Shown one piece after another: positions 53,113 to 64,000 of a stretch of DNA of 64,000 nucleotides (the first letter of the stretch is position 1; each line of letters begins with the position of its first letter). The notes beneath the pieces are model-generated. The model had not been told where the DNA came from. It was given only the letters and a program-made list of their open reading frames with translations, and did not search any database. The position numbers and the translations under genes are program-made. Location: the NCBI GenBank assembly GCA_947090525.1, contig CAMUON010000001.1, positions 388,473 through 452,472 on the forward strand. The letters are read 5' to 3'. Source of the stretch: an uncultured Atopobium sp. (GTDB lineage: Bacteria > Actinomycetota > Coriobacteriia > Coriobacteriales > Atopobiaceae).

Positions 53113-53252
53113 AGACAAAAGCCCCTCAGATGAGGGGCTTGCATATTGCAAGATTGGTACCTACGTACCGCCATACAAAACGTAATGGCTTTTAAGGTTA
53201 AACCTTTATTTTGACTTGCAGTGTCACTTTGACTGGAATCAAAGCAAGGCCA
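53113..53252 (-). ncRNA. Predicted tracrRNA (antisense, upstream of cas9)
   Basis: The plus strand at 53207-53250 carries a degenerate repeat-like sequence (TTTTGACTTGCAGTGTCACTTTGACTGG-AATCAAAGC versus repeat TTTTGGAGCAGTGTCATTTTGACTGGTAATCAAAC), so a minus-strand transcript carries an anti-repeat. Minus-strand terminator GCAAGCCCCTCATCTGAGGGGC plus TTTTGT at 53113-53140. Confidence 0.55.
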
Positions 53253-53281
53253 TTGTAATACATTTAGGAGCGTGTAACAAG

Positions 53282-56200
53282 ATGAATTTACGTAAAGCCT
53301 CTGATTATAGTGTAGGACTTGACCTCGGGACTGGTTCGGTAGGTTGGTGTGCTGTAGATAACAATGGCTATCTTTATTCATTTAAGCGCAAGCCTACTTG
53401 GGGAAGTAGGGTTTATGATAGCGCAGCACCCGCAGCCGATGCACGTCAGTTTCGCAGCCTGCGCAGACGTTATGACAGAAGACGTCAGAGGATAAATCTA
53501 TTACAAGGGCTGTTTTCAGAGGAAATGAAACATGTAGACCCTGATTTTTTCATCCGCTTGAATCAATCGCAATTACTCAAAGAAGACAGAGATGAGACTT
53601 GTAAGGAATATGCATGTCCACTTTTTAAAACTGTTGCGGATGAAAAAGAGTATTACAAAACGTATCCAACGATTTACCATCTTCGCGCAGCTCTTATGCA
53701 TGCAAACCAGAAAATGGATTTGCGGTTAGTTTATCTAGCACTGCATAACATTGTTAAATATCGCGGTAACTTTTTGTATCAGGAATACGCTCATCTATCT
53801 GCAAAAGACGCAGGCTTATCCGAGCAATCTAGCAACTTTCTTACGAGTATTGAACATTTTGAAGACGATCGTTGTATAAGTTTTACTTATGATACCGCAG
53901 AAATTATTCATTTCCTGAATAATTTAAAGCCAACACGAGCACAAAATCGTGATGAATGGCAAAAGCTGTTTGTGTGTGAGGCAAGCGACGACATTCCTGG
54001 AAAACAGGCAAAAGACATCACTAAATGCATTGCTCAAGCAATATTCGGATATCAAGCTGATTTCTCAGCGCTATTTGGAACTGAAAAAGAAAAATCAAAG
54101 TTTACGTTATCTCAAGATGAAAAGGTTATGGCGTTCGAAGAGCTATGCCCCACAGAATTTCTGCCCTTATTTAACGCGCTTAAAGCAATGTATTCTGCAT
54201 ATCTTCTAACAACCATCATAAGAGGCTCCAATGGCGGCACAATTTCAAACGCAAAAATTGCTCAATATAATGCATATCACGATGACCTCGCAAAGCTTAA
54301 GAAGCTTGTGAAACGCATACTAGGCAAGGATGAGTACGATACATTCTTTCAGGGTGTATATTACAAGAATACCAAGTTGTACAACAAGCAAAAAGCAGAA
54401 GGATACACCGCTTACAACTTGGGCAAACTAAGCTACGATGAGTTCAAAAAAGACCTTAAAAAGTTGATTGAAAAACTCGAAAAAAGCGGGGTTTTGAGCG
54501 CTGAAGATGATGCGTGGGTACAGCAGATTCCTACTCGTGTGGACAACGAAGAATTTCTAAGACGGCTGAGAACGAGTGATAACGGTAGTATTCCTTATCA
54601 GTTACATCTTGAGGAAATGGACGCGATCATTAAAAACCAAGGCAAATACTATCCGTTCTTACTCAAAGAAAAAGACAAAATTGAGTCGCTTATAACGTTT
54701 AGGATTCCTTACTATGTAGGACCTCTTACTCTAAAAAATGCTGCACGCGATGCTTATGGTAAGACTCGCTTTGCATGGATACAAAAGAAAGAGGGCGCCG
54801 AAAAAACACGGATACTACCATGGAACTGGGAGGATGTTGTCGATAAACATGCAACGGCCGAAGCGTTTATTAGAAGAATGACTGGTAAATGTACTTATTT
54901 GTATGCTGAAGATGTACTTCCAAAGTGTTCACTTTTATATCAGAAGTTTTGTGCATATAACGAGCTAAATGGTATGCGCTGGACAACAGATAATGACCAG
55001 TATAATCGCTTTAGTGCCGACTACAGAGAGGGTGTTTATAACGATCTTTTTGTTAGGAGTAACGGAAAAGTTACGTACAAAAAGATAGAACACTGGCTCG
55101 AACAGCAAGGTGAATTGCACCCTCATGTAAAAGGCGGTCAGGGAGAAAACGGGCTTGAAAGCAGGCTTTCATCGTACCATTTCTTTAAAGATTTGCTCGA
55201 GTTTGATGTTCTTACAGCTCGGCAAGAAAAAGAAATCGAAAAGATTATTTTATGGAGCACCATCTTTGAAGATCGAACCATTTTGAAAGAAAAGCTCAAG
55301 GCTCAGTCGTTTCAAACTGAATTTACATCTGCGTTTAGTCGTGTTTTAACCGCAGAACAGATACAAAAAATTTGTAAAAAACGATTTACCGGCTGGGGCA
55401 AGCTTTCTAAAAAGCTGCTTACTGGTTTGTCTGTAGATATAGATGGTGAACGTCTTAACATTCTCGATTTGCTGATACACGGTGATGTAACAGATGGTCG
55501 TGCTGGCCGCGCGCTTATTTTTCAAGAGATTGTGACCATGAAGCAATTTAAGGAAGCAATATCAAAAACAAACGAAGAAGCGCTTTCGAAATGCATAATT
55601 GATATAGACGACCTACCTTGCTCACCAGCAGATAAACGCACGGTCAACCAGGCACTTCGCGTGGTAGATGAAATTGCGTCTATTGCTAGTTGCGCGCCCT
55701 CACGAATTTTTATTGAGGTCACACGAGAGGAGGATACAAAAAATAAAGGCAAACGTACAGACAAGCGCACTTCAAAGCTCGAAATGGGGCTCAAAAAGCT
55801 TCGTGACAGCGAGGACACCAAGGCCATTCTCGCAGAACTTTCTGCTCATAAAAATCTAGATGAAAAACTCACGCTATACTTTGCACAAAATGGAAAATCA
55901 CTGTATTCGGGCACGCCACTAGATATTAACGAGCTTTCGCATTATCAGGTAGATCATATAATTCCACAATCATATATAAAAGACGACAGCATAGACAACA
56001 AGGCACTTGTACTTGCAAGCGAAAACCAGCGTAAGAGTGACAGCTTACTCCTAGATGATAGTATTCGCAGAAAGATGAGCAATACTTGGACCGCGCTATT
56101 TAAGGCGGGTCTTATGAGCGAAAAGAAATTCAATAATTTGAAGTGCTCAAGCATTACAGATCGTCGGCTAAAATCGTTCATCAATCGGCAGCTGGTAGAA

Positions 56201-57484
56201 ACGAGCCAAATTTGTAAGTATGCCATGCAACTATTTAAAGCAAAGTACCCACATTGCGAGGTTATACCAGTTAAGGCGGGCATATCTTCTGGTATTCGCC
56301 ATACATGGAACATTGCTAAGTGCCGTGAGGCAAATGATTACCACCATGCGCACGATGCATATTTAGCGTGTGAGGTAGGGCGTTTTATACAGCTTCATTA
56401 TCCAAAAATTTATAGCAACCCAACGGCATACAACAAAGAAGTGCGTGGTCTTATACAGTCAAATATTGTACACAGCGCTAGTGAGGGGAATGGCAGATAT
56501 AGACTGCCGGGTGACTCAGGGTGGCTTACCTATAGTTTTGCGCATAAAAAGACCTCTGCGTGGGATTGTGATGCTGAGCGAGATCGTCTGCTAAAGTATG
56601 TTGACTACCCTGACTGCCATATCACGCGCATGGCATATATAGAAACGGGTGCATTTTGGGATCAGACACTTTATTCGCCTCATGCTGGGAAAAAAGATCT
56701 TATACCTCTCAAGAAACATCTTGACACTCATAAGTACGGCGGGTATTCAAGTAAAAAATACGCACTATTTTTCGTATATTCTTTGCAGAAGAAAAAAGGC
56801 AACAAGGAATATTGTTTATCCGGCTTACCCATAGCTACACTTGCGGAAGCCACTCATAACACAACAGGTAAAATCGATATGGATCGACTCATTCAACTTG
56901 AAGAACAATCTATTCAACTTGAAAAGCAACTTATCACAACTCATCATGCGCCTATCCAGATAGTACAGCCAATCGTGTATAAAAATCAGCTTATCGAATT
57001 TAAAGGGAGACGAGAAATAATTACAGGTAAAAAGGAACGAAGAAATGCTCGGGAACTTGCATTTAAGCAGCAGCATATGCGTTTGCTCAAGATGTGGGAT
57101 GGTGATCTTAAAGGGAAGTATCGTGAGAAAAAAGAAGGCGTTGACGAAGATTGTCTACTCAACGAGATGTTCGATTTGATATTAGAAAAGACGTCTCACT
57201 ATGCACCTATGTTGCATAAAAGACTACTAGACATCGTAAATGCAAACGCGAATGACTATTCACGTATCGAAATGATCTTTGCTGCAATTAAAGATCAAAA
57301 TGATAAAAAAGCTGTCTTGTTTAACATCATTAGCAATGCAAATGCAAATAAAAACATGATTGACTTGACGGCTATTGGGGGAAGTGCAAATTTCGGAGCA
57401 ATTAAAGATCAGCCTAAACAATTTGACATTATTGAACAATCAGTAACAGGTATGTTTGAGAAAAGGATTCACATTGGGATTTAG
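53282..57484 (+). CDS. cas9: Type II-A CRISPR-associated endonuclease Cas9 (about 1400 aa)
   Basis: RuvC-I (YSVGLDLGTGSVGWCAV), Arg-rich bridge helix (RRRYDRRRQRI), HNH (YQVDHIIPQS...N...S). Local GC about 40% versus the higher-GC flanks. Confidence 0.9.
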   Translation: MNLRKASDYSVGLDLGTGSVGWCAVDNNGYLYSFKRKPTWGSRVYDSAAPAADARQFRSLRRRYDRRRQRINLLQGLFSEEMKHVDPDFFIRLNQSQLLKEDRDETCKEYACPLFKTVADEKEYYKTYPTIYHLRAALMHANQKMDLRLVYLALHNIVKYRGNFLYQEYAHLSAKDAGLSEQSSNFLTSIEHFEDDRCISFTYDTAEIIHFLNNLKPTRAQNRDEWQKLFVCEASDDIPGKQAKDITKCIAQAIFGYQADFSALFGTEKEKSKFTLSQDEKVMAFEELCPTEFLPLFNALKAMYSAYLLTTIIRGSNGGTISNAKIAQYNAYHDDLAKLKKLVKRILGKDEYDTFFQGVYYKNTKLYNKQKAEGYTAYNLGKLSYDEFKKDLKKLIEKLEKSGVLSAEDDAWVQQIPTRVDNEEFLRRLRTSDNGSIPYQLHLEEMDAIIKNQGKYYPFLLKEKDKIESLITFRIPYYVGPLTLKNAARDAYGKTRFAWIQKKEGAEKTRILPWNWEDVVDKHATAEAFIRRMTGKCTYLYAEDVLPKCSLLYQKFCAYNELNGMRWTTDNDQYNRFSADYREGVYNDLFVRSNGKVTYKKIEHWLEQQGELHPHVKGGQGENGLESRLSSYHFFKDLLEFDVLTARQEKEIEKIILWSTIFEDRTILKEKLKAQSFQTEFTSAFSRVLTAEQIQKICKKRFTGWGKLSKKLLTGLSVDIDGERLNILDLLIHGDVTDGRAGRALIFQEIVTMKQFKEAISKTNEEALSKCIIDIDDLPCSPADKRTVNQALRVVDEIASIASCAPSRIFIEVTREEDTKNKGKRTDKRTSKLEMGLKKLRDSEDTKAILAELSAHKNLDEKLTLYFAQNGKSLYSGTPLDINELSHYQVDHIIPQSYIKDDSIDNKALVLASENQRKSDSLLLDDSIRRKMSNTWTALFKAGLMSEKKFNNLKCSSITDRRLKSFINRQLVETSQICKYAMQLFKAKYPHCEVIPVKAGISSGIRHTWNIAKCREANDYHHAHDAYLACEVGRFIQLHYPKIYSNPTAYNKEVRGLIQSNIVHSASEGNGRYRLPGDSGWLTYSFAHKKTSAWDCDAERDRLLKYVDYPDCHITRMAYIETGAFWDQTLYSPHAGKKDLIPLKKHLDTHKYGGYSSKKYALFFVYSLQKKKGNKEYCLSGLPIATLAEATHNTTGKIDMDRLIQLEEQSIQLEKQLITTHHAPIQIVQPIVYKNQLIEFKGRREIITGKKERRNARELAFKQQHMRLLKMWDGDLKGKYREKKEGVDEDCLLNEMFDLILEKTSHYAPMLHKRLLDIVNANANDYSRIEMIFAAIKDQNDKKAVLFNIISNANANKNMIDLTAIGGSANFGAIKDQPKQFDIIEQSVTGMFEKRIHIGI

Positions 57485-58355
57485 AACTGTCATCCTCAAT
57501 ACTCCCTGTCGATGCACCTATCAAGGTGGGTACCTGGTTGTTCGTCAAGAGGACAAGCAGCCGCGGGTTCACCTTGGTGAGATTTCATCTATTATGCTTG
57601 GTACCGAGCAGATATTCCTAAGTGCGTATTTGCTTGCTGAGCTCGCAAAACTTAAAATTCCTGTAATTGTTACTGACGAAAAGCATAACCCCGTGGGTGA
57701 ATACTTACCCCTCTATGGCGCGCATAACTGCTCAAAATGTATGCTTGAGCAGCTCGCATGGGGCGAAGTGATAAAAAAACAAGTATGGCGCAGCATTGTT
57801 CAACACAAAATACTGCAACAGAGTTCCATGCTCGCTTATCTTGGCTACTCGGATGCAGCGAAAACATTGGAAGAATATGCCTCAAAAACAAAATCCGGCG
57901 ATACTACCAAAAGAGAAGCCGTGGCCGCTCGACTGTATTTCCTGACACTGTTTGGATCTGAGTTTACAAGAGATCAAAACACTCCTTTGAATGCCTGTTT
58001 GAACTATGGATATGCCATTCTATTGGCGCATGCAAACAGAGAAATTGTGTCTCACGGATATCTCACGCAACTCGGTATTTTTCACCGCAGCGAATTTAAT
58101 CACTTTAATTTGGCGTGTGACCTTATAGAGCCGTTCCGGCCGCTTATCGATAAAATTGTATGTGAACATTTTGCACAGAATTTCGATAATGATATACGAC
58201 ATGCGCTTTGTGGTTTCGTGGATTATCAGCTGTTCTATATGAACGGTAGATACAAAGCGGCGTCTGTAATTAAGTCGTACATATCAGACTGTTTAGCTGC
58301 ACTCAACAAAGAGAAACTTCCTGCCGAAATTAAGCCATTTGGGTTCATACTATGA
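57456..58355 (+). CDS. cas1: CRISPR-associated integrase Cas1 (type II); possible TTG start at about 57474 giving MGFRTV
   Basis: Collinear with streptococcal type II-A Cas1 (GFRTVILN...YLPLYG...LNYGYAILLA...IEPFRPLIDK). Confidence 0.85.
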   Translation: MRKGFTLGFRTVILNTPCRCTYQGGYLVVRQEDKQPRVHLGEISSIMLGTEQIFLSAYLLAELAKLKIPVIVTDEKHNPVGEYLPLYGAHNCSKCMLEQLAWGEVIKKQVWRSIVQHKILQQSSMLAYLGYSDAAKTLEEYASKTKSGDTTKREAVAARLYFLTLFGSEFTRDQNTPLNACLNYGYAILLAHANREIVSHGYLTQLGIFHRSEFNHFNLACDLIEPFRPLIDKIVCEHFAQNFDNDIRHALCGFVDYQLFYMNGRYKAASVIKSYISDCLAALNKEKLPAEIKPFGFIL

Positions 58356-58684
58356 ATACGACAAGGATACGGTTTATGAGGTTGATAGTATTTTTTGATC
58401 TACCCATGGAGACCCATGCTCAGAAAAAGTCTTACACGGATTTTAGGAGATTTTTATTGCATGATGGCTATCTCATGATGCAAAAGTCTGTTTATGTCAA
58501 GCTCATTATCAATGAGCAAAATGCTTCGGCAGTCATTGCGCGCTTAAAACTTCATAAGCCGCAGTATGGCTTGGTTCAGTTACTGAAGGTGACCGAAAAG
58601 CAATACGCCAACATAGAATATGTTTGCGGTAACTCTAGCTCACAAAATATGGTTGAAACTCTGGAAAGCTTACTTATATTATGA
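58352..58684 (+). CDS. cas2: CRISPR-associated endoribonuclease Cas2
   Basis: IRFMRLIVFFDLPMET...KSYTDFRRFLLHDGYLMMQKSVY matches the canonical Cas2 N-terminus. Overlaps the cas1 stop. Confidence 0.85.
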   Translation: MNTTRIRFMRLIVFFDLPMETHAQKKSYTDFRRFLLHDGYLMMQKSVYVKLIINEQNASAVIARLKLHKPQYGLVQLLKVTEKQYANIEYVCGNSSSQNMVETLESLLIL

Positions 58685-59364
58685 ACATACGTTTTAGTGG
58701 CTTATCGAAAATAATTGACCTGAAGAAAGGGCATCCATTTTTTGTCTGTGTTGAGAACCGCCATCTTTATGCCAGATTTATATATTCACTTTTATCTGCA
58801 GCAGGAGAAGAGTCGCCTGAGCCATATACCTTGTGGAACGATAATGATGAAAAGCTCCAGCCCAAAAATCACTTTCTGTGGGTGACCGATCCCTTTCATC
58901 TGCCTTTCGAAAACAAGCTTCTAATGGGTGAAGTACTCAACGGAATTGCAAGCAGCATTGATGATGGCTTTGAAACCCAGGAAGAGTTTAAAGATATAAC
59001 GAGACAGTTATACAAGCTTTTTCTGTTGGAAACGTATCAGTATAAAGGTAATTATGCTATTTCACCTGATGTTGACATTCACAAGATTCTCAAGCTCATG
59101 AGTTTTTCTCCAGACACGTCCCGGGACAATAATTTTCTAGATGAGCTAATCAACTTTATACATATTGCCAGAGACGCATCTCTGATTCAGCCAATCGTTT
59201 TTGTGGGAATTTGTTCTTTTTTGACTGTTAAAGAGATAGAATTATTGCTAGAAGAGATAAAAAATTCTTGTTTATGCGTGCTGTTTTTTGAAAATCGAAT
59301 TCCCTGTGATGCTGTTTATGAAGAAGAGCATATACTACTTGACCTGGATTTTCTTGAGAGTTAA
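58681..59364 (+). CDS. csn2: Csn2 (type II-A signature protein)
   Basis: 227 aa immediately after cas2 and before the array. Architecture like the short-form Csn2. Confidence 0.75.
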   Translation: MNIRFSGLSKIIDLKKGHPFFVCVENRHLYARFIYSLLSAAGEESPEPYTLWNDNDEKLQPKNHFLWVTDPFHLPFENKLLMGEVLNGIASSIDDGFETQEEFKDITRQLYKLFLLETYQYKGNYAISPDVDIHKILKLMSFSPDTSRDNNFLDELINFIHIARDASLIQPIVFVGICSFLTVKEIELLLEEIKNSCLCVLFFENRIPCDAVYEEEHILLDLDFLES

Positions 59365-59419
59365 GTAGGAAAAACCAGCTAAGATGGCCGTTCCCTCGCA
59401 GTGGGAAATTTGTTTCAAG

Positions 59420-60639
59420 GTTTTGGAGCAGTGTCATTTTGACTGGTAATCAAACTCTTGGGCTTACTATTACATTTAAGGCTGTGTTTTGGAGCAGTGT
59501 CATTTTGACTGGTAATCAAACGTGCTGCTTCTTTTTAAGCGAACTTATACCGTTTTGGAGCAGTGTCATTTTGACTGGTAATCAAACTATTGATTCTGAG
59601 GGTATGATTCATGTTGCGTTTTGGAGCAGTGTCATTTTGACTGGTAATCAAACTTAGTGTAAACTACGCCAGTGGTGTCGTTAGTTTTGGAGCAGTGTCA
59701 TTTTGACTGGTAATCAAACCAACGCTTATAGCGTAGTATGTAATGTGTGTTTTGGAGCAGTGTCATTTTGACTGGTAATCAAACAAGAAGCAGCACAACG
59801 ACACGAACGCGCTCGTTTTGGAGCAGTGTCATTTTGACTGGTAATCAAACATATTGCTACGAGGTATTATACGGTCGCGAGTTTTGGAGCAGTGTCATTT
59901 TGACTGGTAATCAAACCATCAACGCTATCTTTGGAGTGAACGTTACGTTTTGGAGCAGTGTCATTTTGACTGGTAATCAAACTGCGTTCGACGTGATCGA
60001 TTCGCTCGGGTTGTTTTGGAGCAGTGTCATTTTGACTGGTAATCAAACTATAAAGTGCATTATCAAGCCATTCACCTTGTTTTGGAGCAGTGTCATTTTG
60101 ACTGGTAATCAAACAGAATGTACCACGACGAGGAGAACGCGCAGTTTTGGAGCAGTGTCATTTTGACTGGTAATCAAACGCGAGGCCGTAGACCTTGAGG
60201 AAGCGACGGTTTTGGAGCAGTGTCATTTTGACTGGTAATCAAACCAGCGGACCTGATTTTATTCGGCTTATAGTGTTTTGGAGCAGTGTCATTTTGACTG
60301 GTAATCAAACCCGTCGGGTTGGCATACGATACCGAGTTCAGTTTTGGAGCAGTGTCATTTTGACTGGTAATCAAACGCGAGGCCGTAGACCTTGAGGAAG
60401 CGACGGTTTTGGAGCAGTGTCATTTTGACTGGTAATCAAACCAGCGGACCTGATTTTATTCGGCTTATAGTGTTTTGGAGCAGTGTCATTTTGACTGGTA
60501 ATCAAACCCGTCGGGTTGGCATACGATACCGAGTTCAGTTTTGGAGCAGTGTCATTTTGACTGGTAATCAAACTCTTGGTGCAAAATGTCTTTGAATGTG
60601 GTTGTTTTGGAGCAGTGTCATTTTGACTGGGGAATATCC
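59420..60639 (+). CRISPR. CRISPR array: 19 copies of the 36-bp repeat GTTTTGGAGCAGTGTCATTTTGACTGGTAATCAAAC, 18 spacers (29-31 bp), terminal repeat degenerate/truncated; leader 59365-59419
   Basis: Repeat starts at 59420, 59486, 59552, 59618, 59684, 59749, 59815, 59881, 59947, 60013, 60079, 60144, 60209, 60275, 60341, 60406, 60472, 60538 and 60604. Spacers 12-14 are exactly duplicated as 15-17. Confidence 0.95.
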
Positions 60640-60709
60640 ATTGACCTTATCATATATAACGAAGGTTATCATAATATATAACAACAACCTGAAACCAAAA
60701 GAGCCGGAT

Positions 60710-60796
60710 ATGGATCAGGTTGTTGTAATGTTTTTTATCAGCTTCTTATCAAATTTTTTAGCGGTAGTGTTAGCTGATGCAATCCGCAAGAAATAA
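60710..60796 (+). CDS. Small hydrophobic peptide (28 aa, MDQVVVMFFISFLSNFLAVVLADAIRKK); paralogue of 61527-61622
   Basis: Single predicted TM helix with C-terminal RKK. Same overall architecture as peptide B. Confidence 0.3.
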   Translation: MDQVVVMFFISFLSNFLAVVLADAIRKK

Positions 60797-60977
60797 AGAC
60801 AAGCTGATAGTATAGGTGAGGCGTGTTGACAGCGCGCCTTATTCTCATCCTACCAGATTAGGGGATGAGAATTGTAGAGCTCATAGGAATTTTGTTGGAC
60901 ACTCTCACGAGCTATAGAGCTTACCATTGGCAGGCTTGTTATGTATGGTTTTACCACAAAAGGAAGGAGCATGAGAC

Positions 60978-61166
60978 ATGGCGACAGAAGCAAGACTAAG
61001 AGCAAATAATAACTACGTTAAACACAACGTAAAGAAAGTATCAATAGCGTTTTATCCAAAAGACAAAGAAATGTATGCATGGGTCGCGCAACACCCTAGC
61101 AAGGCTGGTTATATTCGCGAGCTCATAGTAAAAGACATGCAGGCGAAAAGAGACAGCCAACATTAA
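60978..61166 (+). CDS. Ribbon-helix-helix (CopG/Arc/MetJ-like) small protein, paralogue 1 (62 aa)
   Basis: AAGGAAGGAG RBS. KKVSIAFYPKDKEMYAWV...YIRELIVKDM fits the RHH strand-helix-helix pattern. Paralogous to 61622-61819. Confidence 0.5.
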   Translation: MATEARLRANNNYVKHNVKKVSIAFYPKDKEMYAWVAQHPSKAGYIRELIVKDMQAKRDSQH

Positions 61167-61211
61167 AAAAGCTTGTATAAGCGTACAGCATGCATAACAA
61201 GTTTATAGAGA

Positions 61212-61246
61212 GGGCGGACGGTCATAATACGTTCGCCCTTTTTGTT
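61212..61246 (+). terminator. Rho-independent terminator (GGGCGGAC...GTTCGCCC plus T-run) after RHH paralogue 1
   Basis: GC stem followed by TTTTTGTTT. Confidence 0.55.
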
Positions 61247-61328
61247 TGTGTGTGCATTAACGTGCATACACTGGTACGATATAGAGTAGGTAGTATAATA
61301 ATAAGCAGCAAGAAAGGAGGTGGTTAAA

Positions 61329-61466
61329 TTGGACACCGAAGCACTCTTGCTGAACCTTTTATGCTCGGTTCTTGGTGGTTTGATTATTGAGCTACTGAAA
61401 TTGGGTATAAAAGAAGCTCCAAAGCTTAAGCTAGGGAAAGCAAAGAAAGCAAAGGAGCGAAAGTAA
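61329..61466 (+). CDS. Small peptide A (45 aa, TTG start): hydrophobic helix plus Lys-rich tail (…LGKAKKAKERK)
   Basis: Strong AAAGGAGG RBS 8 nt upstream of the TTG. Confidence 0.3.
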   Translation: MDTEALLLNLLCSVLGGLIIELLKLGIKEAPKLKLGKAKKAKERK

Positions 61467-61526
61467 CAAAGATGCTGGGGAGTTCGCTCCTCAGCGTCTT
61501 ACGTACAGTATAAAGGGGTGATTGCC

Positions 61527-61622
61527 ATGGAGCAATACATTTACATGATTATCACAAGCGCTTTGGGGTACCTTGTAGCGCACTATATCGTGAGGGTAAT
61601 AGAGGCTCTAAGAAAGAAGTAA
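61527..61622 (+). CDS. Small hydrophobic peptide B (31 aa, MEQYIYMIITSALGYLVAHYIVRVIEALRKK), translationally coupled (TAATG) to RHH paralogue 2
   Basis: AAAGGGG RBS. TM helix plus RKK tail. Its stop overlaps the next ATG. Confidence 0.35.
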   Translation: MEQYIYMIITSALGYLVAHYIVRVIEALRKK

Positions 61623-61819
61623 TGAAGATGGTTTCAGATGCACAGAAGCGCGCAAACGCTAACTATAAAAGGAGAAGCACTAAAACAAAGCAGATAGTGT
61701 TCTTTCCCGATGATATGGACTTGTTCGAGTGGGTAGGCACGCAGCCGAAACAAAATGCGTATCTAAAAGACCTCATCAGAAAGGATATGCAAGCTCACAA
61801 ACAAAATGAGCAGCAATGA
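61622..61819 (+). CDS. Ribbon-helix-helix small protein, paralogue 2 (65 aa)
   Basis: KQIVFFPDDMDLFEWV...YLKDLIRKDM. Paralogous to 60978-61166. Confidence 0.5.
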   Translation: MKMVSDAQKRANANYKRRSTKTKQIVFFPDDMDLFEWVGTQPKQNAYLKDLIRKDMQAHKQNEQQ

Positions 61820-61865
61820 GCAGCAATGAGCAAGAGTGAGCAGCTTTGAGCAGCAATGAGCAGCG
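61805..61865 (+). repeat. 10-bp tandem repeat (ATGAGCAGCA x6, with variants) at the 3' end of RHH paralogue 2
   Basis: Seen directly. The period is not a multiple of 3. Confidence 0.7.
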
Positions 61866-62037
61866 CTTATAGCGTAGTATGGAATTGTGAAGCCGTAGGG
61901 GAAACCTTGCGGCTTTTTAATAGGCGGGGGGTATCCTTTCTGAATACGCGCACCGCTCGACGCCATTCAAGAAAAGATGCTTGAGTGGTATTGCCTCGAG
62001 GATGCAAAAGAAGACGAACAGGACGACTTAATACGCG

Positions 62038-62904
62038 TTGACGCACGATCTTGGAGACGATGAATTCATGCGGCTCCTGGCGGAAGATGTAGGTTGCGAA
62101 GTCTATCACCATGCCAACCGTACAACAAAGCATAATGCCGCGAAAAACAGTGTCCGTTATGCGCGCGTGCCCTTTGGTAACTCATGTGCATTTTGCTTGA
62201 TGTTAAGTACCCGCGGCTTCGTGTACCTCTCAAGGACGTCAGCAGGTGAAGACAAGGGGCACTATCACGCACATTGCCATTGCAAAATCGTGGCAAGTAA
62301 GAAAGGTACCACGATCGACGGTTACGATCCTGAGGGGCTCGACTACCGCATACATCAAGTTGCTCAAGAGCTCGGCATTTCCGATTTTAATTGGCAGGAT
62401 TATATGCGCAATCCTGCTATGCAAGCTATGCTGCAAAAAGAAATACGTCTGCGTGACAAAGACTGGTTGCTTACAGGCATGCCGTCTGAGGTAGATTATG
62501 AAAATGAACTTGCTGAGAAGAACGCGCATGCCCATGAAATCGAGCAAGCTAAACGTTTGGCGCAGCACGGCATTAAGTGCACCTTTCAGGTTGATTATGA
62601 GGTTGATGAGAAGACAAAGGGCACAGCAAGACAGAAGACCATTGGCAAGACAGACCTCGCTAATGGTATTGAGCTTAAGAGCTTGGGACACACGACAAAC
62701 CTAAGAAAGAGGATAGAGAAAGAACTCAGGAACTCAAGAGATAAAAAGGGCTTTAAATCGTGTCATTTCGATGCATATGATACGGACTTTGATGAAATAG
62801 AAATATCAAAGGCTTTGAAGGACAAAATGAAACAAGTGCACATTAGGCGAAGTTCTTTTATAGACTCTGATGGGCAATATCACGTCGTTCAGGTAAATAA
62901 ATAA
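62038..62904 (+). CDS. Hypothetical protein with N-terminal Cys/His cluster (C-x2-C ... H-x-H-C-H-C), K/E-rich C-terminal half; AT-rich, probably of mobile-element origin
   Basis: GNSCAFC...GHYHAHCHC suggests a Zn-binding or HUH-like site. No confident family assignment. Confidence 0.4.
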   Translation: MTHDLGDDEFMRLLAEDVGCEVYHHANRTTKHNAAKNSVRYARVPFGNSCAFCLMLSTRGFVYLSRTSAGEDKGHYHAHCHCKIVASKKGTTIDGYDPEGLDYRIHQVAQELGISDFNWQDYMRNPAMQAMLQKEIRLRDKDWLLTGMPSEVDYENELAEKNAHAHEIEQAKRLAQHGIKCTFQVDYEVDEKTKGTARQKTIGKTDLANGIELKSLGHTTNLRKRIEKELRNSRDKKGFKSCHFDAYDTDFDEIEISKALKDKMKQVHIRRSSFIDSDGQYHVVQVNK

Positions 62905-63037
62905 AAAAGAGACTACGACAGGGTAACCCCCGAAGCAGCCTCTCTTATTACAGCCACTATACCACATCAACATCGTTAATCAAAGAGCCTGCATAGGCTC
63001 TTTTTTTATACATCCGCACGGATAGGAAGGACACATC

Positions 63038-63244
63038 ATGGCTAAAGATGATGTACAGCAAGTACAGGACGTCGAAGCGACAGACGCGCACGCAGAAGCT
63101 GCAGAAACCGATTGGAAAGCACAGGCGCGCAAATGGGAAAAACGCGCTAAAGAGAACAGCGCGGCAGCAGATGAGCTCGCCAAGCTTAAGGAGTCGCAGA
63201 TGACAGAGCTCGAACGCATTCAAGCGCGCATGCGCGCCTGCTGA
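63038..63244 (+). CDS. Small acidic/coiled-coil hypothetical protein (68 aa)
   Basis: ORF with an upstream GGAAGGA RBS-like sequence. Its 3' end runs into the right flanking repeat. Confidence 0.3.
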   Translation: MAKDDVQQVQDVEATDAHAEAAETDWKAQARKWEKRAKENSAAADELAKLKESQMTELERIQARMRAC

Positions 63245-63430
63245 AGCTGGTGAGTGCTCCGCATCAGCCTTTTCATGTACAAATTCGTTTCCTCACGCTG
63301 GGGCTTTTTGCTGCGCGTGAACAGAAAACCATGGTAGCAGGCGCAGATGATTTACAAGCATGCTGGTAGCTCGTGCAATAGACTTGCCATCAAGAATTTC
63401 TTGAGAACTTTCTTCTGCCGAGATTTTTAG
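63228..63430 (+). repeat. Island-flanking direct repeat, right copy
   Basis: See 52436-52680. Confidence 0.55.
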
Positions 63431-63433
63431 CCC

Positions 63434-63626
63434 CCGCGCGAGCGTAGAAAAAAACGGGTTTTTATCTACCAAAATATCAAAATTTCAACTAAATTCGATA
63501 GTTTAATTTCTTATATGCGCAGCTACGCGCTTTGGGCGATTTTTTGAGGTGCCGCGGGGGCCTCGAATTTGGCCAAAATCAGGCAAAAACGGTAGACAAA
63601 AAGGCCTTTTTTTCTACGCGCGAGAG
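63434..63626 (-). mobile_element. 190-bp TIR element B, copy 2 (inverted relative to copy 1)
   Basis: Same termini (CGCGCGAGCGTAGAAAAAAACGGGTTTTTATCTACC). The interior is the reverse complement of copy 1. Confidence 0.5.
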
Positions 63627-63674
63627 TGGGGGCAGAAAAGCCTGCCTTGTATATATTCATGTGCGCTCACTATC

Positions 63675-63725
63675 GGATGTTTTGTGGATAGACCGAAGAC
63701 CTAACGGTCTACCACAAAACATCCT
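63675..63725 (+). repeat. Perfect 21-bp-stem hairpin element, copy 2
   Basis: Identical stem to 30115-30165; loop aagacctaa. Conserved flanks GCTCACTA(C/T)C and ATCCTCCTCGTTCGC, plus about 60 bp of similar downstream sequence. Confidence 0.7.
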
Positions 63726-63854
63726 CCTCGTTCGCACGGATCTCCTACCAGGCTTTTCAGCGGCCGCGTGTGCGTAGCAAAAAACCAAGCGTGAGGAACG
63801 AGTGCAAGCTCGCTAACGCCTTCGCGGAAGCTTTTTCCTGCAGAAACCCTTCAC

Positions 63855-63921
63855 CCCACACAAAAGCCTCCAGCACCCACACAAAAGCCTCCCCGCACAC
63901 ACAAAAGCCACCCCGCACCCG
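63855..63921 (+). repeat. Three tandem 21-22-bp repeats (CACACAAAAGCCTCC(A/C)(G/C)CAC-like)
   Basis: Seen directly. Confidence 0.6.
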
Positions 63922-64000
63922 CGTGCCATCTACCTGCAGCGATACAAAACCCAAGCGTATCTGTGCAATTTCTCCACTCACGAAAAAAAATTCTTTTTTG

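Follow-up and report, generated by a model that had tools for sequence, protein, structure and literature searches.

Tandem membrane-peptide/RHH cassettes, probably of phage origin, beside a type II-A CRISPR array in an uncultured Atopobium sp.

This study concerns a cluster of very small genes directly 3' of a type II-A CRISPR array, within 64,000 nucleotides of DNA from an uncultured Atopobium sp. (assembly GCA_947090525.1, contig CAMUON010000001.1, positions 388,473 to 452,472), a stretch that we call the window and whose own numbering we use. Judged by comparison with related loci, the cluster is a genuine phage cassette, conserved yet uncatalogued, and we hold with moderate confidence that it is present here as two tandem copies of a mobile accessory element abutting the CRISPR trailer. 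From sequence and comparison, the unit is built in the order putative promoter, distal peptide with a single transmembrane (TM) segment, GC hairpin, proximal single-TM peptide, ribbon-helix-helix (RHH) protein gene, terminator. The case draws on gene order, on the coupling of the proximal peptide to the RHH gene, on conservation, on predicted RNA and DNA structures and on the phage origin of the segment. As to function, we lean towards autoregulated, translationally gated membrane-peptide cassettes, whose products would be toxin-like or exclusion-like.

Architecture and conservation of the cassettes

Homologues of RHH1, the first of the two RHH proteins in the cluster, were placed on their contigs, and further loci were collected from genomes, IMG/VR and metagenomes (labelled L001 onwards). 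A hidden Markov model (HMM) scan then gave 66 distinct RHH contexts, 27 of them close (Atopobiaceae-type) and 39 more distant. The pairing of peptide and RHH gene recurs: a proximal single-TM peptide of 30-44 aa with a basic tail precedes the RHH gene in 26 of the 27 close contexts, its stop codon falling in the interval from -32 to +10 nt relative to where the RHH gene starts. In 20/27 a second, distal TM peptide ends about 160-200 nt 5' of the RHH gene. RHH1 of the window is the only close context (1/27) without a proximal TM peptide. The two modules of the window comprise the following features.

60641..60709, + strand: putative promoter and leader of module 1, with an AT-rich -10 region, a direct repeat and the conserved leader ...ATATAACAACAACC
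60673..60734, + strand: predicted leader/coding-sequence helix of the pepA mRNA, arms 60673-60692 and 60715-60734, with the ribosome-binding site (RBS) and ATG in a 22-nt loop
60710..60796, + strand: pepA, 28-aa predicted single-TM peptide beginning MDQ, tail AIRKK, assigned as distal peptide of module 1
60816-60842 and 60843-60870, + strand: two adjoining GC-rich hairpins with no T tract, directly 3' of pepA (inverted repeat I12)
60865..60999, + strand: degenerate proximal-peptide slot of module 1, a 44-aa, weakly hydrophobic open reading frame (ORF)
60978..61166, + strand: RHH1, 62 aa, a predicted N-terminal helix and then strand-helix-helix
61212..61245, + strand: intrinsic terminator of module 1, GGGCGGACG...CGTTCGCCC then TTTTTGTTT, read from the sequence and kept in L039
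61249..61328, + strand: putative promoter and leader of module 2, TATAAT at 61294-61299, leader AAGCAGCAAGA, Shine-Dalgarno AAAGGAGG at 61313-61320
61329..61466, + strand: pepC, 45 aa, hydrophobic helix and Lys-rich tail, assigned as distal peptide of module 2
61469..61500, + strand: GC hairpin with no T tract, GCTGGGGAG-ttcg-CTCCTCAGC, between pepC and pepB
61527..61622, + strand: pepB, 31-aa predicted single-TM peptide beginning MEQ, tail ALRKK, assigned as proximal peptide of module 2
61622..61819, + strand: RHH2, 65 aa from the ATG at 61622 or, more likely, 63 aa from the ATG at 61628
61889..61919, + strand: terminator hairpin of module 2, AAGCCG...CGGCTT then TTTT, read from the sequence

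An earlier note on this DNA had described two modules of the same layout, each a peptide followed by an RHH gene, with a separate third peptide between them. Every ORF that it named is present in the ORF list (pepA, RHH1, pepC, pepB and RHH2), and pepC does start, as proposed, at a TTG 8 nt 3' of the Shine-Dalgarno sequence. The layout has to be redrawn, because pepA ends 181 nt 5' of RHH1 with hairpins between them, a spacing like that of distal peptides elsewhere, whereas pepB abuts RHH2. Since related loci show the distal/hairpin/proximal/RHH unit, pepA and pepC are the distal peptides of modules 1 and 2, and pepB is the proximal peptide of module 2. The TAATG overlap reported for pepB and RHH2 exists (61620-61624), but family N-termini and the public gene call, which is the 63-aa form (MVSDAQ...), favour the ATG at 61628, 5 nt past the pepB stop; the two genes are tightly coupled whichever start is used.

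The proximal slot of module 1 is occupied in the window by an ORF (60865-60999) whose ATG abuts GGGG, leaving no usable spacing from RBS to start. In L039, a metagenomic locus orthologous to the array and cluster, the same slot holds an intact 34-aa TM peptide to which window segment 60840-60977 is non-homologous; this segment has been exchanged between the two, a case of mosaic cassette swapping at fixed boundaries. The unit recurs in at least two distant phage clades: loci L089-L091, whose RHH protein is about 38% identical, have the identical order of a 44-aa TM peptide, a 30-aa TM peptide and an RHH gene. Across the more distant contexts as a whole, a proximal TM peptide occurs in just 3/39. 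The distal and proximal peptides of the window, L001, L015, L016 and L089 have in common a juxtamembrane motif of the approximate form V-H-[YL]-x3-A-I-[DE]-x3-5-K-K (for example ...VAHYIVRVIEALRKK in pepB and ...IVHYATTAIDKHLADRQKK in the distal peptide of L016), so that a single peptide superfamily seems to supply both slots.

That the peptide ORFs are real genes, as the earlier note supposed, is borne out by their conservation in related loci. The pairwise Nei-Gojobori ratio of non-synonymous to synonymous divergence (pN/pS), computed for 79 homologous pairs, is mostly 0.1-0.5 for the peptides at pS of 0.3-0.7, and we conclude that they are evolving under purifying selection. The pairs that involve the peptides of the window gave these values.

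pepA and L039: pN/pS 0.14
pepB and L039: pN/pS 0.13
pepB and L007: pN/pS 0.29
pepB and L041: pN/pS 0.33
pepB and L043: pN/pS 0.37
pepC and L043: pN/pS 0.35

Between the window and L039, synonymous changes outnumber non-synonymous ones in pepA, pepB, pepC and RHH2 (pepA differs by one non-synonymous and two synonymous changes), and the regulatory elements are nearly invariant; pepC of L039 carries a 1-nt frameshift. Homologues of pepB align in L039, L041, L007 and L043. Called homologues of pepC (P0172-P0176) are 87-100% identical to it, and in the intact phages L084 and L086 the gene lies between an ArpU-like gene and the RHH gene. Each of pepA, pepB and pepC has a hydrophobic stretch of 15-20 residues followed by RKK or a Lys-rich tail, with Kyte-Doolittle maxima (15 aa) of 1.7-2.5. 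The description of the cluster as unannotated holds for these three peptides, whose exact sequences are absent from a collection of 15 billion proteins, and fails for RHH1 and RHH2, which are both in it. Searches of all five small proteins against Pfam, NCBIfam and PADLOC returned nothing meaningful, and searches of the peptides against Pfam, NCBIfam and PHROGs with E up to 10 returned noise only (for example BcsF at 0.024).

Expression signals and the RHH family

Each cassette looks like a self-contained transcription unit with a sigma-70-like promoter and an intrinsic terminator, sometimes with cargo genes before the terminator (DUF2513 and Abi_2 in some loci). A promoter (TTGCAT-N17-TATAAT in the phage copies) and a leader are conserved 5' of each distal peptide. 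The promoter of module 1 is homologous to this region and to the ATATAGCAACAACC that follows it in prophages; a consensus scan found there a weak site, TTATCA-17-CATAAT, and the direct repeat D7, ATCATATATAAC / ATAATATATAAC, spans 60649-60682. Promoter-like sites numbered 8 where 4.6 +/- 2.0 were expected, with none convincing on the minus strand. Canonical terminators, read from the sequence and conserved, end each unit, and the terminator hairpin of module 2 is kept in L007, L040, L041 and L046.

The 5' end of the leader is predicted to pair with codons ~3-11 of the distal peptide, enclosing RBS and start codon, and a helix of this kind was found at 12 of the 19 distal peptides, in two sequence versions (CAACAACC/GGTTGTTG and CAGCAAGA/TCTTGCTG). 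When the sequences are aligned with the complementary motifs as anchor, pairing holds in 84% of cells, as against 27-54% when the partner strand is slid, and 6 pairs have changed on both sides. In module 1 the helix is formed by inverted repeat I1 (20 nt, 85% complementary; fold dG -20.0, z -3.8) and is kept with compensatory changes across modules; in module 2 the leader pairs with pepC codons through the second version (dG -21.8, z -2.1). A second structure, a hairpin without a T tract 3' of the distal stop, was found in 17/19 candidate modules (mean dG -21.5, mean z -3.3), built from at least five unrelated sequences. The hairpin pair at 60816-60870 folds with a dG of -29.1 and a z of -4.4, and the pepC-pepB hairpin with -23.7 and -3.1. 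The inverted repeats that the earlier note had seen around pepA, and had offered as RHH binding sites, are present, but they turn out to be this hairpin pair and the leader/coding-sequence repeat of 60673-60692 with 60715-60734.

Antisense RNA was sought through minus-strand promoters, whose matches did not rise above chance, and through Rfam, which returned none; over 59300-64000, with E up to 1, Rfam gave only noise. One minus-strand promoter directed antisense into pepC (TTGCTC-N17-TATACT) was picked out by inspection, fell below the scan threshold and was not relied on.

RHH1 and RHH2 are paralogous, as had been claimed (41% identity over 56 aa, E=2e-18), and both are predicted to adopt the ribbon-helix-helix fold, with a strand-helix-helix core of about 45 residues. 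A first AF2 model, built on 14 close sequences, reached a pLDDT of 69.6 with no Foldseek match in the PDB, and a deeper alignment was then used; the structures closest to the resulting RHH model are those of the antitoxins ParD, RelB, CopA/CcdA-like, TacA and MazE6. Curated RHH models did not recognise the two proteins. With E up to 10, RHH1 had no Pfam or NCBIfam match and RHH2 only a noise match to YebO at E=0.46; none of 31 diverse family members matched a curated RHH model with E up to 1, and a PDB sequence search with RHH1 found no match. Their only matches are phrog_4223 and phrog_14312, both PHROG families of unknown function. An exhaustive profile search yielded 922 RHH-family clusters (50% identity; E<=1e-3), nearly all of about 60 aa, with the consensus M..SEAQKRA.AKY.K..VKQ..V.FYP.D.DL.EWL..Q.NKAGYIK.LIR.DME. 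The idea that RHH1 and RHH2 are pieces of a larger, frameshifted gene was rejected, since the family is uniformly about 60 aa long and both proteins are full-length.

Two members in the representative search, P0038 and P0066, are fusions of the RHH protein to a C-5 cytosine DNA methylase (Pfam E=1e-64) and a Lar restriction-alleviation domain (E=5e-9), and these fusions fit a general role of the RHH protein as a regulator of accessory or conflict genes. Several other members have uncharacterised C-terminal domains, some of them strongly acidic. The exact RHH1 sequence is in the public protein collection (sources NCBI, ENA), and its 90%-identity cluster includes a Fannyhessea vaginae member named 'hypothetical protein'. 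Deposited phage genomes gave one weak match (33% identity, unannotated) and plasmids none. Literature searches on Fannyhessea prophages with CRISPR, and on RHH with small membrane proteins, found nothing relevant.

A decayed prophage beside a CRISPR array

The features that place the cassettes in their surroundings are as follows.

60604..60639, + strand: terminal CRISPR repeat, with 6 mismatches in the repeat scan, all at the 3' end; last 9 nt degenerate
61805..61864, + strand: six tandem 10-bp units (AATGAGCAGC) beginning inside the RHH2 stop region (Tandem Repeats Finder, repeat family D1)
61861..61889, + strand: degenerate protospacer copy for spacer 59720-59748, in the 3' flank of RHH2 (BLAST)
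61930..62904, + strand: VG15-type minor head protein, truncated at the 5' end and frameshifted, that has an additional C-terminal domain (intact ORF 62038-62904)
63038..63244, + strand: phage head scaffolding protein cut short to 68 aa (phrog_9857 at E=9e-15, covering 8-76 of the 165 profile positions)

Because a truncated VG15 gene and a truncated scaffold gene follow the cassettes, we read 60640-63250 as the packaging-proximal end of a decayed Atopobiaceae prophage from which HNH through portal have been lost. In intact prophages the order is RecT, SSB, RusA, an ArpU-like 171-aa gene, one or two peptide-peptide-RHH cassettes, 10-bp repeats, HNH or TerS, TerL, portal, VG15-type head protein, scaffold, capsid. 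The cassette usually stands just 5' of the packaging genes in intact Atopobiaceae prophages, and it lies between the ArpU-like gene and HNH/TerS in L016, L018, L021, L084 and L086; in other phages it is found 3' of the lysin gene (L020, L022 and L032) or within an early operon. The VG15 protein of the window covers positions 109-206 of the 212 in the Pfam VG15 profile (E=1e-31) and shares 68.9% identity with residues 106-388 of its intact, 392-aa counterpart in prophage L021, and the scaffold protein matches residues 1-57 of the 149-aa scaffold protein of L034. Remnants with deletions or frameshifts in their structural genes still have their RHH genes, and most of their peptide ORFs, intact. 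The cassettes have the traits of a phage moron: their own promoter and terminator, as read from the sequence, a place between conserved phage modules, and variable copy number and position.

Arrays similar to the 10-bp units 3' of RHH2 occur 3' of RHH2-type genes in L001, L007, L016, L018 and L021, and a related one fills part of the RHH-to-terminase gap of L086. Repeats of this kind containing AGCAGC adjoin packaging genes in several phages; in L086 (~2040-2130) they are inverted, separated from the RHH gene and flanked by a G-rich segment, GGGGGGGGGTACCCCTCCC. Instead of serving as an RHH operator, such repeats may belong to a cos region or be recognised by terminase.

The left boundary of the phage-derived segment is the terminal repeat, and the small-gene cluster, as the earlier note had it, thus begins right after the array. 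The repeat/cluster junction is near-identical in L039 (2 substitutions within the repeat), which has no spacer in common with the window; the two arrays must therefore have diverged no earlier than the remnant arose. The cluster is also AT-rich, as claimed (43% G+C, as against about 50% across most of the window), and so is the whole cas locus, at about 40%. That locus, of type II-A, comprises a Cas9-sized ORF (53216-57484), a Cas1-sized ORF (57456-58355) and csn2 (58681-59364), the only one of the three with a name from its database source, followed by an array at 59420-60639 of 19 repeats, the last one 3'-degenerate, and 18 spacers. Within the array, a block of three spacers with their repeats (GCGAGGCC..., CAGCGGACC..., CCGTCGGG...) is tandemly duplicated at 60180-60340 and 60377-60537, the period being 197 bp.

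The cassette-bearing phage family is matched by at least four of the 18 spacers (59720-59748, 59851-59880, 59983-60012 and 60574-60603): one hits RecT (30/30 in L004), two hit the ArpU-like 171-aa gene and another hits the 3' flank of RHH2; the match of 59851-59880 to the ArpU-like gene is weak (a 14-nt exact match at E=0.026, plus the common translation YCYEVLYGR). All four matched protospacers have G at position 4 of the 3' flank (tgtG, cgaG, gaaG, taaG). Where the targets can be placed (L001, L018) they fall within about 5 kb 5' of the HNH/packaging boundary, a placement that recalls the cos-end-biased spacer acquisition reportedly described by Modell et al. in 2017.

Spacer 59720-59748 matches the flank of RHH2 in the window over an exact 18-nt core (61864-61881, BLAST), in L007-L012 at 22/22 and in L039, which lacks that spacer, at 28/29 positions by reading. 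The window copy (61861-61889) carries a T>G change and a 1-nt deletion in the 3' part, proximal to the protospacer-adjacent motif (PAM). A self-protospacer that is mutated where the spacer is present and intact where it is absent suggests that Cas9 interference has been active beside the cassette, which argues against an anti-CRISPR role. The earlier note had held that the position beside the array made an addiction module, an anti-CRISPR or Aca-like regulator or a cas regulator all plausible. Most other loci that we examined have no array in the fetched flanks and the cassettes lie in prophages, so neither the positional argument nor a cas-regulator role finds support, and we think it unlikely that the cassette, which stands outside the CRISPR-Cas machinery, serves as an anti-CRISPR or as a cas regulator. 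A solitary CRISPR repeat 3' of the RHH gene, as for mimicry or recombination, was looked for in L001-L033 with up to 11 mismatches, and none was found. Small genes beside an array need not be CRISPR accessories; here they mark a phage fragment lodged at the trailer, and the array itself has spacers against that phage family.

In a related type II-A locus, long inserts of 2156, 408, 611 and 599 bp lie between perfect CRISPR repeats (L034 4140-6295, 7772-8179 and 8282-8892; L036 8929-9527). The 2156-bp insert contains a VG15 head protein with a faint CdiA_C match, a scaffold gene and the 5' end of a capsid-like gene, and the 408-bp insert an RHH gene whose 3' end runs straight into the repeat. 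At its end the 2156-bp insert has 29 nt that match, with 2 mismatches, an ordinary spacer of that array, which suggests capture of phage DNA by spacer-protospacer recombination, a process reportedly described by Varble et al. in 2019; the other insert ends match no current spacer.

Other observations concern the neighbouring head genes. The C-terminal domain of the window VG15 protein (~190 aa) has no family match and may contain a D...ELK nuclease-like motif, a candidate found by reading; the protein resembles phage head proteins fused to polymorphic-toxin tips, and no immunity-like gene lies 3' of it. Further on, 63250-64000 holds long imperfect inverted repeats (~63400-63760) and a 20-bp tandem repeat at 63857-63918 (CACACAAAAGCCTCCCCGCA). 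In several chromosomal islands (L007 2850-9400; L008, L013-L015, L020), peptide-RHH cassettes alternate with differing VG15 C-terminal fragments, accompanied by immunity-like genes of 74 and 90 aa and by Abi_2, a pattern suggestive of orphan toxin-tip and immunity cassettes set out in an array. The Abi_2 gene of L008-L012 separates the RHH2 stop from a relocated copy of the repeat/terminator segment.

Possible functions and known systems

In the mechanism that we favour, an RHH dimer would bind the cassette promoter and limit transcription, the hairpin would attenuate read-through so that the distal peptide and the proximal-peptide/RHH pair are made at different levels, and the leader helix would keep the distal peptide poorly translated. 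The peptides would lie in the membrane, N terminus outward and Lys/Arg tail inward, and would act there either as small toxins, in a toxin/regulator cassette under transcriptional and translational control, or as moron-type exclusion factors. We slightly favour the toxin-like version, with a non-toxic exclusion factor almost as likely; the lean towards a harmful product comes from the predicted translational gating and from the retention of cassettes in decayed remnants. It is possible, though doubtful, that the three-gene unit represents an undescribed class, in which a type I-like membrane toxin is checked by mRNA structure and a protein repressor instead of antisense RNA and serves as an addiction or abortive-infection module. 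Such a role, if true, would explain why the cassette outlives the rest of the prophage.

Several points weigh against autoregulated, gated membrane-peptide cassettes. Promoters, attenuation, autoregulation and membrane insertion are all predictions from the DNA. The pepC frameshift in L039 and the loss of the module 1 proximal peptide in the window suggest that individual peptides are dispensable, and the peptides match no catalogued type I toxin, holin or exclusion family in Pfam, NCBIfam or PHROGs. A family of 922 clusters with a proximal TM peptide in 3/39 distant contexts suggests that the RHH protein has no dedicated peptide partner, and at 62-65 aa with a short polar tail it is without the C-terminal toxin-binding extension of type II antitoxins. 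An operator that co-varies with the RHH allele or the 10-bp unit was sought by reading the sequences, with none consistent, and the window and L039 have the same promoter yet different RHH1 alleles. Anchoring the leader-helix alignment on complementary motifs biases it towards structure, and most of its compensatory counts stem from one split between two module types.

A rather unlikely alternative in its strict form is that the cassette is a superinfection-exclusion moron, whose non-toxic peptides bind the host membrane proteins used for phage DNA entry while the RHH protein sets expression. HK97 gp15, a moron-encoded small inner-membrane exclusion protein, is a precedent, and remnants would be kept for protecting the host: intact cassettes persist in decayed prophages near defence-type cargo such as Abi_2 and near CRISPR-Cas, as autonomous units with their own promoter and terminator inside prophages, and by reading the juxtamembrane motif [KT]AI[DE]...KK is common to peptides of distant modules with a predicted single-pass topology and a basic cytoplasmic tail. 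A start codon shut inside a leader helix, together with a hairpin attenuator, is however more characteristic of genes with harmful products, and there is no sequence relation to YebO or gp15, the sole YebO match being the noise-level hit of RHH2. An anti-CRISPR or anti-defence operon, in which small inhibitors are made in an early burst from a strong promoter with the RHH protein as an Aca-like autorepressor, strikes us as quite improbable. It would account for the acr-aca-like logic of strong promoter, tiny genes, terminal DNA-binding protein and terminator, for the heavy targeting of this phage family by type II-A spacers, for the Lar and methylase fusions and for the mosaic swapping; Listeria prophages, moreover, carry acr genes after the lysin gene, the cassette's place in L020, L022 and L032. 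Yet the anti-CRISPR proteins known to us are soluble, whereas the cassette encodes basic, hydrophobic peptides of 28-45 aa with a single TM segment and no match in Pfam, PHROGs annotations or PADLOC, and the adjoining array itself holds a spacer against the cassette 3' flank, its resident protospacer mutated and the L039 copy intact.

Two further explanations deny the peptides a role. That the RHH protein regulates late genes or a packaging site by binding the 10-bp repeats near the terminase genes, the peptides being incidental ORFs, we consider highly improbable: the peptides are not incidental, because they are under purifying selection, RHH1-type and distant-clade copies are without such repeats, the cassette elsewhere is post-lysin or in an early operon, and the repeats of L086, set apart from the RHH gene, inverted and by a G-rich segment, look more like a terminase recognition or cos site. 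This explanation does account for the RHH2-type gene being last before HNH/TerS-TerL in L016, L018, L021, L084 and L086, with 4-6 phased 10-bp repeats 3' of it, and RHH proteins such as omega, ParG and ParR often bind tandem repeats. Functionless debris, whose ORFs are intact only through recent prophage decay, is scarcely credible. There is truncation of the phage genes next to the cassettes, degeneration of the module 1 proximal peptide in the window and a frameshift in the pepC of L039, as debris would show, but the junction common to two strains with no shared spacer makes the remnant at least as old as the array split, and between those strains synonymous changes exceed non-synonymous ones in pepA, pepB, pepC and RHH2 and the regulatory elements are nearly invariant.

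Among known systems, acr-aca operons resemble the cassette in their strong promoter, tiny genes, terminal DNA-binding autoregulator, mosaic exchange among phages and accessory-region location; they differ in that the cassette products are predicted membrane peptides and that Cas9 apparently stayed active beside them, and to our knowledge most described Aca proteins are helix-turn-helix proteins. The immI region of P22 has the Arc and Mnt RHH repressors near sieA, with burst-then-shut-off expression, and the cassette shares with it and with phage morons a promoter-to-terminator unit between phage modules, small RHH repressors and small inner-membrane products. There is no homology to the proteins of P22 immI or to HK97 gp15, and we know of no three-gene order, leader helix or inter-peptide hairpin at those loci.

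Type II toxin-antitoxin (TA) systems provide the nearest structural neighbours of the RHH model (ParD, RelB, CopA/CcdA-like, TacA, MazE6) and, like the cassette, couple a small, putatively autoregulatory DNA-binding protein to a partner gene and persist in decaying mobile elements. The cassette departs from them in its reversed gene order, in having a TM micropeptide as partner instead of a soluble enzyme toxin, in an RHH protein without the toxin-binding extension and in an RHH family that is widespread without peptides; no toxin domain adjoins the RHH gene in Pfam or PADLOC searches.

Type I systems of Gram-positive prophages include Fst with RNAI-RNAII and, in Bacillus subtilis prophage remnants, TxpA/RatA, BsrG/SR4 and BsrE/SR5. 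Their toxins, like the cassette peptides, measure some 30-45 aa and combine one TM helix with a charged tail that is often rich in Lys, they reside in prophages or remnants in several copies per element, and mRNA structure limits access to their translation start. Unlike them, the cassette has two peptides per unit, matches no catalogued toxin family, yielded no antisense RNA candidate above chance in the promoter scan and none in Rfam and, where type I systems have no protein partner, has a predicted co-transcribed and coupled RHH protein. If the peptides are RHH-controlled membrane toxins or exclusion factors, this is a compact, recurrent phage cassette of genes mostly skipped by gene callers; a large RHH family so far uncharacterised (922 clusters, without a model in Pfam or NCBIfam) would thereby gain its first function, and the small membrane toxins known from prophages would gain a variant that is regulated by a protein and gated by structure.

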